Below, piece by piece: positions 33,034 to 49,077 of a stretch of 64,000 bases of DNA (position 1 is the stretch's first letter; every line of letters begins with the position of its first letter). The DNA is from Coriobacteriia bacterium (GTDB lineage: Bacteria > Actinomycetota > Coriobacteriia > Coriobacteriales > UMGS124). A program made the position numbers and the translations under genes. The notes under the pieces were generated by a model, which saw only the letters and a program-made list of their open reading frames with translations, was not told the DNA's origin and did not search any database. The stretch is taken from contig JAGZEG010000004.1 in NCBI GenBank assembly GCA_018368455.1, positions 19,617-83,616 on the forward strand, given 5' to 3'.

Positions 33034-34389
33034 CTACTCCCCGAAGCCGCGGGCGAGGAACTCGGTCGTGTACGCGAGCGTGGCGGCGACGCCGAGGGCC
33101 AGCGCGTCCTCGTCGATGTCGAACTGCGGGGTGTGGTGGGGCGCGCCAGTGCCTGCGGCCTCGTTGGCGATGCCGACGTGGGCGAAGACGCCGGGGTAGC
33201 GCCGCAGGTAGTGGCCGAAGCTCTCCGAGGCGTACCACGGCGCGCACGCCGAGACAGCGCCCTCGGGCAGCACGTCTGCTAAGGCTCGCTTGGCCAATGC
33301 GGCGGCGCGGGCCTCGTTCACGACGGGCAACGCGAGGTCGGCTGTTCCCCGAACCTCGGCCGTGCACCCGTGCATGGCGGCCGTATGCTCGGCAACGCTT
33401 CGCACGATAGCAAGTGCTTGGCGCCCAGCTCCTTCGTCGAAGAAGCGCATCAACCCGGTGATGCGCGCCTCGTCGGGGATGACGTTGAACGCCTGGCCGC
33501 CGCTGATCGTCGTGGGTCCCAACGTGACGGGCGTGTTGGGCGCGATCTGGTTCACCCAGGCAACCGCGAGGTTGTTGAGCAGGTTGGCCGCGACGAACGT
33601 GGGATTGCGCGCCATGTCAGGCCGCGAGCCATGGCCGCCGAGGCCGTGAATCGTGACGTCGAGGTCGGCCGCGCCCGCCATGCGAGGGCCGGCGTCGACG
33701 CAGATACGCCCGGAGGCGAGCCCCGCGTAGAGGTGGATGCCCCACACGGTCTCGATGGGGTAGCGCTCGATGGCTGCCAAGACGTGCGGGAAGCCCGCCA
33801 TCGTCTCTTCTGCTGCCTCGAAGCATAGGATGACGGTGCCGCTGAGCCGTCCCTCGTCGCGCAGGCGGGCCATGGCGCGGGCGGCGCCGAGCAGCATGGC
33901 TGTGTGACCGTCGTGCCCGCAGGCGTGGGAGGTGGTCCCCGTGCTCGAGACGCAGGCGCGTGGCCCGGCGAGGTTGCACGGATCCTCGGAGACGGGTAGC
34001 GCGTCCATGTCGGCTCGCAGCGCGACGCAGCGGCCTGGTCGGCCGGTCTCCAGTACGCCGATCACGGAGGTGCTTGCCGGCGTGGCGTCCGAGGCTGAGG
34101 TTGCCGGCTCGCCCGTGCTCCCGACGGCCTCGTTCTTAGCAGTCTTGCTCCTGATGCCGTCGCTCGCCAGATAGTTCTCAATTCCCAGCGCATCGAGCTC
34201 GCGGCGCACCAGCGCGCTTGTCTCGAACTCCTGCCCGCTGAGCTCGGCGAGCCCGTGGATGCGTCGGCGCATCTCGACGACGTACCCCGTCCCTTGGCAC
34301 ACGAGCTCCCGAATCTGCTCCGTGCTTGCAGGTGCCATTGTGGTGGAGTCGAAAGTCGAAGATGTCTGCGAGGCGGGGGAATGCGGCAT
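33034..34389 (-). CDS. M20-family amidohydrolase (N-acyl-L-amino-acid amidohydrolase / peptidase M20D type)
   Basis: 'SHACGHDGHTAMLLGAARAM' metal-binding motif and 'AGAADLDVTIHGLGGHGSRPD' dimerisation-domain motif. It is the last gene of the minus-strand peptide ABC operon. Confidence 0.85.
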   Translation of the reverse strand: MPHSPASQTSSTFDSTTMAPASTEQIRELVCQGTGYVVEMRRRIHGLAELSGQEFETSALVRRELDALGIENYLASDGIRSKTAKNEAVGSTGEPATSASDATPASTSVIGVLETGRPGRCVALRADMDALPVSEDPCNLAGPRACVSSTGTTSHACGHDGHTAMLLGAARAMARLRDEGRLSGTVILCFEAAEETMAGFPHVLAAIERYPIETVWGIHLYAGLASGRICVDAGPRMAGAADLDVTIHGLGGHGSRPDMARNPTFVAANLLNNLAVAWVNQIAPNTPVTLGPTTISGGQAFNVIPDEARITGLMRFFDEGAGRQALAIVRSVAEHTAAMHGCTAEVRGTADLALPVVNEARAAALAKRALADVLPEGAVSACAPWYASESFGHYLRRYPGVFAHVGIANEAAGTGAPHHTPQFDIDEDALALGVAATLAYTTEFLARGFGE

Positions 34390-34505
34390 GGGGGCTCCTC
34401 GGGTTGGCGGCGTACGGCCTGGCGGTGTGCCAGCGGGGATGTACCGTGCATTCTACGGACGTTTCCTCGAAAGAGGGCGACAATGCACGCGACAGGCGGC
34501 TCCCT

Positions 34506-35471
34506 CTACTCCTCGTACAGATGGCATGCGACCGTGTGACCGGGGGCGAACTCGCGGATGGCGGGCTCGACGCGCGCGCAGACGTCCATGCGACGTGGGC
34601 ACCTCCCGCAGAAGCGGCAGCCGGGCGTGGGGTTCACGGGACTCGGAGCGTCGCCGCTCAGCACGATGCGCTCCCGTTCGTGTGCGAGCTTGGGGTCGGG
34701 GATGGGCGCGGCGGCGAGCAACGCGCGGGTGTAGGGGTGCAACGGCTCGCGGTAGAGCTCCTCGGCCGGCGCGTGCTCCACGAGCTTGCCCAGGTACATG
34801 ACGCCCACCTGGTCGGAAATCTGCTTGACGACAGCCAGGTCGTGCGCGATGAACAGCATCGTGAGCCCGCGCTCGCGCTGCAGTCGGATGAGCAGGTTCA
34901 CGATCTGCGCCTGCAGGGAGACGTCCAGCGCCGACACGGGCTCGTCACACAGCAGAAACTCCGGGCCCACCGACAGTGCCCGCGCGATGCCGATGCGCTG
35001 ACGCTGCCCGCCCGAGAACTCGTGCACGTTGCGCTCGGCGCACTCGGTACCCAAGCCCACCTGGTCGAGCAGGTTGAACACCATCGTGCGCTCCTCGGCC
35101 CGGCTGCGCGCCAGCTTGTGAATGCGGATGCCCTCGGCCACGATGGCGTAGACCTTCTGCTGTGGGTCGAGCGAGGCATAGGGGTCCTGGAACACCATCT
35201 GCGCCTGCCGCGTGAAGGCGAAGCGCTCGCGGCGCCCCATCGTGTGGACGTCGGCGCCGCGGAAGCGCACCTGCCCGTCCGTGCGGCCCAGCACGCCAAG
35301 GCACGTCTTGCCGCATGTCGTCTTGCCGCAGCCTGACTCGCCCACCAGGCCGAGCGTCTCGCCGCGCCGAATGGAAAACGACACGTCGTCGACGGCCTTG
35401 AGCAGCTGGCCTGCGCCAACGGGATAGTACTTCTTGAGGTGCGACACCTCGAGTTCCACGTCGCCGGCCAT
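34506..35471 (-). CDS. Oligopeptide/dipeptide ABC transporter ATP-binding protein (OppF/DppF-like)
   Basis: Walker A 'GESGCGKTT', signature 'FSGGQRQRIGIARAL', Walker B 'LLCDEPVSALD', and the C-terminal oligopeptide-transporter extension 'PLHPYTRALL...CRFCGRCP'. Confidence 0.9.
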   Translation of the reverse strand: MAGDVELEVSHLKKYYPVGAGQLLKAVDDVSFSIRRGETLGLVGESGCGKTTCGKTCLGVLGRTDGQVRFRGADVHTMGRRERFAFTRQAQMVFQDPYASLDPQQKVYAIVAEGIRIHKLARSRAEERTMVFNLLDQVGLGTECAERNVHEFSGGQRQRIGIARALSVGPEFLLCDEPVSALDVSLQAQIVNLLIRLQRERGLTMLFIAHDLAVVKQISDQVGVMYLGKLVEHAPAEELYREPLHPYTRALLAAAPIPDPKLAHERERIVLSGDAPSPVNPTPGCRFCGRCPRRMDVCARVEPAIREFAPGHTVACHLYEE

Positions 35472-36614
35472 CTACCGGCCCTCCTTCGTCGTGCCCGCCG
35501 CCAGATAGCGCGGGTCATGCAGCCAGCACGTGACTTCGTGGCGCCCGCCGGTTGCGGCTAGACCACCCGTGCCGGTTTGCCCGCCTGCTGCTGTCTCGCC
35601 TGCTGCCGGACCGCCCGCCGTTTCGCCCGCGAGCTCTACCGTGGCGGGCATCTCCTGGGCGCAGATACGCATCGCATGGGGGCAGCGCTCGCAGAACGCG
35701 CAACCGGTCGGTTCGCTCGTCGGGTCGGGCAGCGTGCCCTCGATGGCGCGCAGCCCCTGCTTGGCCGGTGCGTCCAGACGCGGCACGCTGGCGAGCAGCG
35801 CCTCGGTGTAGGGGTGCGCCGGTCGGTAGAAGATATTGTCGCGCGGGCCCTGCTCCACGATGCGCCCCGCGTACATGACGACGACGCGGTCGGCCACGTC
35901 GGCCACGATGCCCAGGTCGTGTGTGATGAGCAGCACGGCCGTTCCAAACTGCCGCTGCAGGTCGCCCATGAGTTGCAGCGTCTGCTGCTGCACGGTGACG
36001 TCGAGCGACGTCGTGGGCTCGTCGGCGATGAGCAGCCGCGGGCGCGCCACCATGGCCGAGGCAATCATGACGCGCTGGCGCATGCCGCCCGACAGCTCGT
36101 GGGGGTAGCGCCGCATGCACGCCTCGGGGTCGGGAATCTCCGTGAGCCGCAGCGTCTCGATGGCGCGCCGGCGCTTCTCGGAAGCCGAGAGTTCGGGGCA
36201 GTGGTTGTCGAGCGCCTCGATGAGCTGGCGGCCGACGCGCATCGTCGGGTTGAGCGAGGCCAGCGCGTCCTGGAAGATGAGCGCGCAGTCCCGCCCGCGA
36301 AAGTCGCACCACTGGCGCTCCGAGAAGCCCAGCACGTTCGTGCCGTCGAAGCGGATGATGCTGCCCGGCTCGATGAGGCCCGGTGCGCGCACGAGGCCCA
36401 TGACGGCTTTGGCGCTCACCGACTTGCCGCAGCCCGACTCGCCGACCAGTGCGCACGTCTGCCCGGCGGCCACCGAAAACGTCACGCCGCGCACGGCTCG
36501 CACGACGCCGCCCACCGAGGGGTAGCTCACTCGCAGGTTCTCGATCTCGAGCAGCGGCGCTCCACCCGCGCATCCCGCGCCCGGCCGCCCGGCTCGTATC
36601 TCCTTCTCGCTCAT
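35472..36614 (-). CDS. Oligopeptide/dipeptide ABC transporter ATP-binding protein (OppD/DppD-like)
   Basis: Walker A 'GESGCGKSV', signature 'LSGGMRQRVMIA', Walker B 'LLIADEPTTSLD', 'PAHPYTEALL...CAFCERCP'. Confidence 0.9.
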   Translation of the reverse strand: MSEKEIRAGRPGAGCAGGAPLLEIENLRVSYPSVGGVVRAVRGVTFSVAAGQTCALVGESGCGKSVSAKAVMGLVRAPGLIEPGSIIRFDGTNVLGFSERQWCDFRGRDCALIFQDALASLNPTMRVGRQLIEALDNHCPELSASEKRRRAIETLRLTEIPDPEACMRRYPHELSGGMRQRVMIASAMVARPRLLIADEPTTSLDVTVQQQTLQLMGDLQRQFGTAVLLITHDLGIVADVADRVVVMYAGRIVEQGPRDNIFYRPAHPYTEALLASVPRLDAPAKQGLRAIEGTLPDPTSEPTGCAFCERCPHAMRICAQEMPATVELAGETAGGPAAGETAAGGQTGTGGLAATGGRHEVTCWLHDPRYLAAGTTKEGR

Positions 36615-48662: not shown

Positions 48663-48818
48663 GATGTGACCTGCGTTTCTCGAAGACGCGCAACAAGGCG
48701 CATGCCGATGCGGGCTGCCCAGACCGGGCGGGTGTTTCGCTCACTCAGGGCGAGGCGCCGCGAGCCGGATGGGGCGACACCGTCGCGGGCCGAGAGCGGT
48801 CGGCCTGTTTTTGCGCAT

Positions 48819-49040
48819 AAAAAAAGCCCTTGCCGCGCCCTCTGTTGGCGCCGCCCGGGACCTCTTCTGTGCTGGCTGCTCTTCCGTTGTACCCGCGTCC
48901 CTGCACACGGCAGGTCGTCTCTCTACATGACGATCGTCCCTGCCCCTTGCTCCATGGCATCATGTGAACACCCCCTCTCTCCGTAACGTGGGCGCATCGC
49001 TGATCTGCGTACTGCGCGCGATGCCCCTTCTCCATCTGCT
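48819..49040 (-). ncRNA. Structured 5' leader with intrinsic terminator (candidate riboswitch/attenuator), copy 2
   Basis: RNA sense: ...GGAGAGAGGGGGUGUUCACAUG...UCAUGUAG-AGAG-ACGACCUGCCGUGUGCAGGG-A-CGCGGGU...CAGAAGAG...CCCGGGCGGCGCC-AACAGA-GGGCGCGGCAAGGGC-UUUUUUU. The terminator stem is at approx 48826-48862 and the U-run at 48819-48825. Confidence 0.5.
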
Positions 49041-49047
49041 ATCGCGC

Positions 49048-49077
49048 ATCTTGCGACAGGCGTGGAGGCGCCGTCAA
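49048..49077 (-). promoter_or_regulatory. Sigma70-like promoter for leader 2 / amino-acid ABC-lyase-reductase operon
   Basis: Minus-strand TTGACG (49072-49077), 18 nt, CAAGAT (49048-49053). Confidence 0.35.

Follow-up and report, generated by a model that had tools for sequence, protein, structure and literature searches.

In a 64-kb window from an uncultured gut Coriobacteriia bacterium (contig JAGZEG010000004.1; "the window" below means this whole stretch of 64,000 nucleotides), 14 consecutive minus-strand genes lie head to tail at 33034-48363 and form two units, A (48363 down to 40757) and B (40278 down to 33034), each preceded by a long leader. We found that this cluster is a new combination of known protein families with cross-phylum support, headed by a previously undescribed translated leader. 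As judged from sequence, the region may be a two-unit regulon, controlled by its leaders, that salvages a chalcogen, most likely selenium and possibly sulfur too, from imported amino acids and peptides; we hold this reading to be a little short of probable. Unit A encodes a binding protein, two permeases, a PatB-family C-S beta-lyase, an ATPase (activase), a double-cubane-cluster reductase (DCCP), a DUF3343 protein and a class-V enzyme. Unit B encodes a family-5 solute-binding protein (SBP5), OppB, OppC, OppD, OppF and an M20D amidohydrolase. Intergenic gaps within the cluster are 0-168 nt, with the exception of leader B at 478 nt, and the G+C content of the window is about 65%. Coordinates are collected in Table 1.

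Modules of the cluster recur in related genomes

A scan of genome contigs with the reductase gave at least 80 loci, nearly all of them Collinsella among the matches listed, at 65-69% identity; closer relatives of the cluster were retrieved through protein look-ups. Of these, L087, L088 and L134 come from assemblies GCA_963619535.1, GCA_963628595.1 and GCA_963556965.1, respectively, and L081 and L130 from metagenome bins. Among the matches listed, the Collinsella order is DCCP paralogue, DCCP, activase, a stretch of 2-3 kb, DUF3343 and class-V enzyme, with OppBCDF immediately 5' of the module in about a third. The closer relatives (loci denoted by L numbers) carry the modules in other arrangements. 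L081 (DCCP 93% identical) reads SBP3, two permeases, TcyN-like ATPase, activase, DCCP, DUF3343, class V, SBP5 and OppBCDF, with no PatB and no M20. L082 (87%) reads DUF3343, leader, PatB pseudogene remnant, activase, DCCP, DUF3159 and class V, and L083-85, L087 and L088 (80%) read PatB, activase, DCCP and class V, followed by SBP5-OppBCDF where the contig extends (L083, L084). An M19 dipeptidase gene opens the series in L130, before DUF3343, PatB, activase, DCCP, class V, SBP5 and OppBCDF; DCCP, SBP5, OppBCDF, PatB and activase form one string in L131; and TetR, SBP5, OppBCDF, PatB and DCCP form one operon in Roseburia hominis, of the Firmicutes (L133).

Activase-DCCP-(DUF3343)-class V was kept in every relative that covers those positions (L081, L082, L083-85, L087, L089, L130 and Collinsella). 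The full 16-kb gene order, which an earlier note on this DNA had described as one supercluster, did not survive the check on related genomes: the M20 gene is specific to the window, with none found after OppF in the relatives reaching that far (L081, L083, L130), and an ABC ATPase takes the place of PatB in L081. The modules recombine repeatedly across two phyla. Because they co-locate repeatedly in reshuffled orders, this pattern of gene order argues for a functional link of the Opp importer, PatB, the DCCP with its activase, and the DUF3343/class-V pair. In GCA_964619775.1, the leader heads both DUF3343-activase-DCCP-class V (L089) and SBP5-OppBCDF (L128). Since the module-1 leader (described below) thus stands before two operons on separate contigs of one genome, we take the leader elements to define a regulon. 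That both operons follow a common signal, as the earlier note had proposed, is a fair inference from the homologous leaders on the two units and from this genome.

Two relatives show further features at the position of the leader. L082 (5900-6090, plus strand) retains a piece of the PatB N-terminus (...GTGSSKWDAMLRSCPDVPEDVVP...) between leader and activase, which makes the order leader-PatB ancestral in that lineage. In L131 (8360-8720, plus strand), a leader of about 880 nt precedes DCCP-SBP5-OppBCDF-PatB-activase; it has four hairpins, each with the loop YUUCUGCA, and a fold z-score of -3.6. This leader may represent another type of regulatory RNA, bound by a protein and serving the same pathway. 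The activase of L131 is followed by an Old-Yellow-Enzyme gene (L131:17621-18742, plus strand), which scores 419.5 bits against the bilirubin-reductase N-domain model (cutoff 425).

The leaders contain a translated reading frame that spans a terminator

Together with seven copies from relatives, the two window copies made up a set of nine long leaders for comparison. Leaders A and B have in common a 53-nt block (module 1) that is 87% identical, and a 33-nt leader core occurs twice in the window versus 0 expected. They had been called near-identical; they have this block and a multi-part architecture in common, but the leaders are not near-identical overall. Rfam 15 gave no match for either leader at the gathering threshold and no meaningful one at E <= 10, and none in four related loci; the only window-wide match at the gathering threshold was raiA, which lies elsewhere.

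Eight of the 9 copies have the module-1 block ACGACCUGCCGUG(U/C)GCAGGGNCGCGGG unchanged, and L128 deviates from it at two positions. The hairpin of the block, CGACCUGC-CGUGY-GCAGGGUCG, is in frame with the start codon of an upstream open reading frame (uORF) and encodes TTCR(V/A)QGRG. Synonymous sites within the hairpin are fixed, the rare CGU codon included, with L128 (AUG for ACG) as the sole exception. Directly beyond the hairpin, the Gly codon varies (GGA, GGU, GGG). Because synonymous sites are fixed inside the hairpin while this outer codon is free, module 1 is constrained both as RNA and as reading frame.

In 9/9 long leaders, a strong Shine-Dalgarno sequence (GGAGG) precedes a start codon whose frame agrees with that of the core. 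The uORF runs on without a stop for 64-98 codons, across a terminator whose sequence varies between lineages, and in L134 it keeps its frame despite a 22-codon insertion. Its C-terminus, (A)RG(A/P)SP-UGA, is kept as a peptide. The last six codons vary synonymously (GCU/GCA/GCG, CGC/CGU/CGG, GGC/GGG/GGU, GCC/GCA/GCG, UCG/UCC/UCA), and this change of third positions under a constant peptide is direct evidence for translation of the uORF.

All eight leaders folded have a terminator hairpin (-24 to -29 kcal/mol) with a T5-T7 run behind it; the ninth leader, L134, is nearly identical to leader B. The terminator lies within the uORF in 8 of 9 leaders. Its stem sequences are unrelated between lineages, a conservation of structure. 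A simple consensus scanner called neither the terminators nor the promoters of the leaders, in leader B because the terminator stem is imperfect; the terminator claim rests on folding. Boxes of the form TTGAC(A/G)-17/18 nt-CA..AT, similar to those read before leaders A and B, were visible by eye in relatives. As far as sequence comparison goes, the leaders are translated uORF attenuators and not simple RNA elements. Set against the trp/his attenuators, they have the leader reading frame 5' of the terminator and lack the regulatory codon cluster and the antiterminator: the core contains one invariant UGC and one near-invariant UGU cysteine codon, four codons apart and in no run, and duplex energies between core and terminator arm were no better than those of shuffled controls in the eight leaders. 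Metagenome scanning with the strict core pattern gave 0 matches. The 38 matches to a codon-degenerate core pattern were rejected, all being consistent with chance in unrelated environmental contigs. Between leader A and the binding-protein gene, a 75-aa ORF (48435-48662, minus strand) has a predicted transmembrane segment and a weak DUF6479 match only; it is missing from the homologous leader of L081, and its significance is doubtful.

A UGA-hairpin unit ends the upstream reading frame

The uORF stop codon belongs to a second conserved unit (module 2), with the consensus UGA, 15 nt, GYCY-xGUyz-GGGC, in which G at +21 and U at +22 are invariant. Of the 12 instances found, 10 have a spacer of exactly 15 nt, although its sequence diverges. 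Three mini-uORFs of 13-14 codons with unrelated peptides (MAAQQIRAHILKGV; MVAQEKRARIHGGV; MSKLKGRLVVAGR), located 5' of PatB in L083, L087 and L130, carry the same UGA-15 nt-hairpin arrangement, and mini-uORFs ending ...GASP-UGA, located 5' of SBP5 in L083 and L130, have the hairpin at a different spacing. Across the 10 aligned copies, 100% of cells in the upper stem are paired. A covariance model of module 2 (R1) run on 626 kb matched only these leaders; within the window it marked exactly the two operon heads, and there were no further copies and none in Collinsella.

Module 2 was compared with the four computational criteria of the bacterial selenocysteine insertion sequence (bSECIS) model as quoted in PMC13188914. 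For a required loop of 3-9 nt and a stem of at least 4 bp, the 10 aligned copies have loops of 3-5 nt and stems of 4-8 bp. As the model asks, all loop types (GGUCU, GGUUC, GGUCC, AGUUC, GGUCG and GUC; G36 and U37 invariant) have a G at loop position 1 or 2 and then a G or U. The distance from UGA to loop, 16-37 nt in the model, is 19-20 nt in 10 copies, about 17 in L130S and about 26 in L083S. The minimum free energy (MFE), which the model sets at no more than -7.5 kcal/mol, ranges from -9.6 to -22.5 kcal/mol over positions +1 to +42.

No selenoprotein genes from the same lineage were found in the related loci examined, and Collinsella selD was used instead for a SECIS comparison. Among the matches listed, 69/69 copies of this gene (for example L029:13283-14347) have an in-frame UGA (GSG-U-AAK) and an invariant hairpin, UCGCCCAG-GUC-CUGGGCGA; in the selD of an Atopobium-labelled metagenome-assembled genome (MAG), L001, the UGA position is occupied by Cys and the hairpin is absent. 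The selD element GCCCAG-GUC-CUGGGC resembles module 2 (GCCC-GGUCU-GGGC, GCCCC-GUC-GGGGC). In Collinsella, a 22-codon uORF (MPQKTYSRRVAARALYMARSRI-UGA) with a strong Shine-Dalgarno sequence lies 5' of the DCCP paralogue (L029:2940-3060, plus strand); its UGA is inside the loop of a 10-bp hairpin, and it may be an analogous device.

Selenium genes are also neighbours of the module. selD (TIGR00476, 336 bits) and yedF (TIGR03527, 214 bits) lie in the stretch of 2-3 kb between activase and DUF3343 of the Collinsella module, and both, together with DUF3343 and class V, stand beside DCCP orthologues (65-69% identity) in Collinsella and in the Atopobium-labelled MAG. Of 970 high-scoring NF040772 proteins, 955 are in SelD-positive genomes (Haft and Gwadz, 2022). 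STRING links DUF3343, "Sec lyase family", activase and HgdB-like genes in a selenium island of Slackia heliotrinireducens (Lin et al., 2015). A precedent for a regulatory element of this kind is known from E. coli, where the selAB 5' untranslated region contains a SECIS-like element that binds SelB and regulates translation.

Protein families of the two units

Pfam and NCBIfam profile searches upheld all 14 family identities predicted earlier for the two operons. The DCCP aligns over its full length with PDB 6ENO (E = 4.5e-84), and C55, C74, C93, C123, C290, C320 and C353, the seven conserved ligands of the [8Fe-9S] cluster, all match cysteines of 6ENO; two spacings of its cysteine motif are 1-4 residues off the published one. 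The gene for its cognate ATPase, the activase, adjoins it. PatB has the pyridoxal-phosphate (PLP) lysine motif (Lys249 in APSKTF). The class-V enzyme has the PLP lysine Lys200 (GHKS) and a catalytic Cys338 (RSGAHCA), as in SufS/CsdB-type and type-II desulfurases, and matches PDB 5b7s at E = 1e-50.

The unit-A binding protein scores 57 bits against the cystine-binding model, under its cutoff, and the two permeases score 127 and 117 bits against the cystine permease model, short of the cutoff of 300. No ABC ATPase gene is present in unit A. The slot that PatB fills here (45775-45788) is taken in L081, the closest relative, by a TcyN-like ATPase (322 bits, L081:7997-8935), and this swap suggests a gene replacement after which the unit-A importer must borrow its ATPase. 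Also in the window are an orphan family-3 binding gene (51134-52333, minus strand), 75% identical to the unit-A binding gene over 300 nt, and an orphan second family-5 binding gene (9700-11547, plus strand), both without leader elements.

For the unit-B binding protein, the best NCBIfam models are NikA, Opp4A, CntA and GsiB, every one below its cutoff. OppB, OppC, OppD and OppF make up an Opp/Nik-type ABC importer (34506-38580). A 657-aa ORF for the binding protein (38653-40626) was discarded as a high-GC artefact: the real start is 40278, with an AAAGGA ribosome-binding site and a twin-arginine signal, and the identical database protein, P0121, has 541 aa.

A proposed chalcogen salvage route and its control

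From the chemistry of these families we infer the following route. The cystine-type amino-acid ABC system and the Opp/Nik-type peptide ABC system would import the substrates, the M20D amidohydrolase would trim a peptide or an N-acyl group, and PatB would cut the C-S or C-Se bond. The ATP-driven DCCP with its activase would then reduce the freed persulfide, perselenide or Se(0)-level product, and DUF3343 and the SufS/SclA-type class-V enzyme would pass selenium or sulfur onward. The earlier note had proposed sulfur or selenium salvage by this cluster. The link of peptide ABC system, PatB and DCCP stands on their repeated co-location, but selenium, mentioned there only as an aside, gives the strongest comparative signals.

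From the observed anatomy of the leaders we infer a mechanism of control. Each unit would have its own promoter and a homologous translated leader. Because the terminator is inside the reading frame and no antiterminator was detected, read-through most likely needs a closely following ribosome, and transcription would reach the structural genes only when a ribosome trails the polymerase closely, as in pyrBI-type coupling. Module 1 could serve as a pause or synchronising hairpin. SelB with Sec-tRNASec (Sec, selenocysteine) would act at the UGA-hairpin, so that termination versus Sec insertion reports selenium status and sets downstream expression; we prefer SelB/Sec-tRNASec at the uORF UGA because of the agreement with the bSECIS model, the likeness to the selD SECIS and the selenium-linked genes. 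Read-through of the UGA could carry ribosomes out of frame over the downstream start, which would give repression at plentiful selenium, or it could shield the spacer between hairpin and gene start from Rho, which would give activation at plentiful selenium. This spacer is C-rich and G-poor (190 C vs 115 G; operon overall 0.34/0.32), and as far as the sequence goes both directions of response are compatible with it.

That the leaders are an undescribed kind of selenium sensor, combining UGA recoding with a ribosome-overridden terminator, and that the role of the DCCP is the ATP-driven reduction of the C-Se lyase product to selenide, is a doubtful though possible extension of the salvage reading. 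Whether the regulatory principle is genuinely new we regard with similar reserve.

Several observations weigh against a selenium regulon of this kind. Among the relatives, the homologue of the ABC system in a Lachnospiraceae (L135-137) stands by itself, with no DCCP nearby. Among the proteins, the class-V enzyme is below the SclA cutoff (NF040779, its next-best model, 325.7 bits vs 525), and cystine-type permeases, PatB and one or two core cysteine codons fit a sulfur role equally. No selA, selB, selC, selD or tRNA genes were found in the 64-kb window, and DUF3343 is also present in genomes without SelD (Lin et al., 2015). In the leaders, covariation in the stem of module 2 is weak, as 62/500 shuffles reach the observed score and the stem is conserved in sequence; the leaders of L082 and L089 are without module 2, and the spacing differs in L083S and L130S. 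The bSECIS expectation of a protein that continues after the UGA does not hold: there is no conserved coding extension, and the frame that is translated lies before the UGA. Chance alone would produce a generic UGA plus hairpin carrying GU at +21/22 about 5 times in every 64 kb, and because this pattern is so frequent, the SECIS-likeness of module 2 rests on its conservation and not on the pattern. Sec decoding is usually inefficient and would by itself make a weak switch.

Alternative explanations

A sulfur version of the pathway, in which the cluster recovers sulfur from, or breaks down, cystine, Cys-Gly or N-acyl cysteine S-conjugates, the leader senses cysteine at UGU/UGC and the UGA hairpin is merely structural, appears unlikely, although it survives best among the alternatives. 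It agrees with the cystine permease and TcyN models as the best matches for unit A and the L081 ATPase, and with the M19 dipeptidase upstream in L130. PatB enzymes act on cysteine S-conjugates, and the sequence of transporter, M20 dipeptidase and PatB is proven in skin bacteria (PMC11742315). The leaders offer this version one invariant and one near-invariant cysteine codon in the conserved core, and cysteine-sensing uORF attenuators are known in Actinobacteria (bioRxiv 10.1101/834739). However, one or two non-adjacent codons are not a run, and no alternative antiterminator pairing beats the shuffled controls. As the terminator lies inside the uORF, a ribosome stalled at the Cys codons would turn the operon off under cysteine starvation, which is the wrong sign for salvage. 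The sulfur version also leaves unexplained why selD-yedF lie beside the orthologous module and why the distance from UGA to hairpin is fixed.

It is improbable that module 2 is instead a TnaC/SecM-like termination arrest with no involvement of selenium. RGASP with Pro in the P site would slow release factor 2 at the UGA, and the stalled ribosome would shield the C-rich Rho-loading spacer or remodel the RNA in response to a small molecule. Pro-stop contexts terminate poorly, and SecM ends in RAGP. The maintenance of ARGASP at the amino-acid level right before the stop speaks for such an arrest, as does the C-rich, G-poor spacer. The PatB-type mini-uORFs, on the other hand, end in KGV, GGV or AGR, with no Pro, and have the same UGA-15 nt-hairpin geometry; the feature common to all types is the hairpin sequence and not the peptide.

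Very improbable, too, is a reading of the module-1 block as a small-molecule riboswitch or protein-binding RNA, with the terminator as expression platform and an incidental reading frame. In 8 of 9 copies, the codons ACG ACC UGC CGU G[U/C]G CAG do not vary at synonymous sites (ACG is AUG in L128), a sign of constraint at the RNA level; a hairpin is predicted in most copies, and a strong terminator follows in all. Against this, there is no Rfam match and no antiterminator, the structure is a simple hairpin that shows no covariation as its sequence never varies, and the Shine-Dalgarno sequence, in-frame start, long open frame and conserved peptide show that the region is translated. A chance neighbourhood of unrelated genes, without co-regulation or functional link, would account for the unconserved full gene order, the lineage-specific M20 and amino-acid ABC systems and the solitary Lachnospiraceae ABC homologue, but is barely credible given modules that recur in at least six arrangements in two phyla and one leader type that heads physically separate operons in one genome.

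Relation to known systems

No published pathway with the PatB/Opp/DCCP combination was found in the literature, in line with what the earlier note had supposed. A characterised analogue is known for the part formed by transporter, M20 and PatB (the Cys-Gly-conjugate pathway, PMC11742315). This thioalcohol (body-odour) pathway of Staphylococcus hominis and Corynebacterium uses a peptide transporter, an M20 dipeptidase (PepV/TpdA) and a PatB-type lyase, which there act serially on a Cys-containing peptide conjugate (PMC11742315). Peptide uptake, M20 hydrolase and PatB-family lyase are thus common to both. S. hominis has its genes at unlinked sites, with a POT transporter, an M20A hydrolase and no reductase; the present cluster brings together an ABC importer, M20D, PatB, a DCCP and selenium/sulfur carrier genes.

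The DCCP/DCCP-R pair of Carboxydothermus hydrogenoformans (6ENO/7YYL) is matched in full-length homology, in all cluster cysteines and in the cognate BcrAD-type ATPase next door. In contrast to that pair, the DCCP here has PatB, DUF3343, a class-V lyase and importers around it, and these give it a concrete metabolic context. Selenium-utilisation neighbourhoods (selD, yedF, DUF3343, SclA) have in common with the cluster a DUF3343 protein, a TIGR01977 enzyme, an activase and an HgdB-like DCCP; unlike them, the window is without selD, yedF and yedE and has, in addition, PatB, two ABC importers, M20 and uORF leaders.

As in SECIS elements, and in keeping with the bSECIS model, module 2 is a hairpin whose small apical loop contains GU and which keeps a fixed spacing to a UGA. 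The difference is that this UGA ends a non-conserved regulatory uORF and does not lie inside an enzyme gene, and Sec insertion here is a proposal. The selAB element itself lacks a UGA and is only 3 nt away from the Shine-Dalgarno sequence. Leader-peptide attenuators (trp/his, pyrBI) likewise have a translated reading frame with a Shine-Dalgarno sequence 5' of an intrinsic terminator, and the pyrBI leader frame runs through its terminator as the present ones do. The present leaders differ in having no regulatory codon run and no detectable antiterminator, in their length of 64-98 codons, and in the conserved peptide and UGA-hairpin at their end. Unlike these leaders, the mycobacterial polycysteine uORFs are leaderless and contain many cysteine codons (bioRxiv 10.1101/834739).

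The structure of the DCCP has been solved since 2018, its near-exclusive co-occurrence with SelD is unexplained, and its physiological function and substrate are stated to be unknown (PMC9351452). The locus and its relatives put this protein in a defined context of importers, C-S/C-Se lyase, reductase, carrier and class-V lyase, which gives biochemists a short list of substrates for direct testing. Almost no cis-regulators of bacterial selenium homeostasis are known, and a uORF UGA with a SECIS-type hairpin, if true, would be a simple and portable selenium sensor. The carriers are human-gut Coriobacteriia and Lachnospiraceae, members of a community that competes with its host for selenium. Should the selenium reading fail, the leaders would still be a new conserved translated attenuator, with an in-frame terminator coupled to a peptide-specific stop context.

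Table 1. Leader elements and genes of the two units, in window coordinates
Feature	Position	Strand	Basis or remark
Leader A promoter-like TTGACG-18 nt-CAAGAT	49048-49077	-	putative; read by eye; below scanner threshold
Leader A uORF, 72 codons, MMPWSKGQGRSSCRETTCRVQGRGYN...GKGFFYAQ...ARGASP-UGA	48745-48963	-	5' GGGGGU
Leader A module 1, invariant block with hairpin	48878-48930	-	sequence comparison
Leader A intrinsic terminator	48819-48872	-	hairpin -27.3 kcal/mol + T7, inside uORF
Leader A module 2: UGA 48747-48745, 15-nt spacer, hairpin GCCC-GGUCU-GGGC 48729-48717	48717-48747	-	MFE -12.3 kcal/mol; R1 49.8 bits
Family-3 amino-acid-binding protein	47377-48363	-	SBP_bac_3, 93 bits
Two polar-amino-acid ABC permeases	45788-46504, 46518-47297	-	best match cystine permease model
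PatB-family C-S beta-lyase	44558-45775	-	TIGR04350, 398.1 bits vs cutoff 340
BcrAD/BadFG ATPase (DCCP-R, activase)	43679-44512	-	PF01869, 170.6 bits; TIGR00241, 214.9 bits
Double-cubane-cluster reductase (DCCP)	42395-43597	-	NF040772, 482.8 bits vs cutoff 350
DUF3343/Se_S_carrier, 78 aa, Cys7, Cys19, Cys45	41990-42226	-	PF11823, E = 7.4e-20
Class-V PLP enzyme, SufS/SclA type	40757-41908	-	TIGR01977, 377.5 bits vs cutoff 377
Leader B promoter-like TTGACA-17 nt-CACTAT	40653-40681	-	putative; read by eye; below scanner threshold
Leader B uORF, 76 codons, MGIRGSCSATTCRVQGRGSN...GQGFFHAA...ARGASP-UGA	40370-40600	-	5' GGGAGG
Leader B module 1, hairpin CGACCUGC-CGUGU-GCAGGGUCG, encodes TTCRVQGRG	40533-40585	-	sequence comparison
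Leader B intrinsic terminator	40436-40487	-	hairpin -28.7 kcal/mol + T6, inside uORF
Leader B module 2: UGA 40372-40370, 15-nt spacer, hairpin GUCC-GGUUC-GGGC 40354-40342	40342-40372	-	MFE -11.7 kcal/mol; R1 53.5 bits
Family-5 solute-binding protein, 541 aa, twin-arginine signal	38653-40278	-	SBP_bac_5, 209.5 bits
OppB	37606-38580	-	Pfam BPD_transp_1 + OppC_N/BPD_transp_1_N (with OppC)
OppC	36615-37613	-	Pfam BPD_transp_1 + OppC_N/BPD_transp_1_N (with OppB)
OppD	35472-36614	-	Pfam ABC_tran + oligo_HPY
OppF	34506-35471	-	Pfam ABC_tran + oligo_HPY
M20D amidohydrolase, last gene of unit B	33034-34389	-	Pfam Peptidase_M20 + M20_dimer; TIGR01891, 262.7 bits vs cutoff 153.75

Other features of the window

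Just downstream of the cluster, a low-GC patch at 30000-32000 (0.55 vs about 0.65), near PIN-domain and AAA_14/DUF4143 genes, may be acquired DNA. The raiA RNA motif (RF03072, 151.7 bits) is present at full length at 55654-55910 on the plus strand, and downstream of it lie a weak SBP_bac_3-like ORF (55880-56962) and an S30AE/hibernation-factor gene (57056-57760). The segments 733-4550 and 15059-22956 contain three FMN_bind + FAD_binding_2 reductases, each with a LuxR/GerE regulator; such pairs are typical of Eggerthellaceae-like xenobiotic reductase loci.

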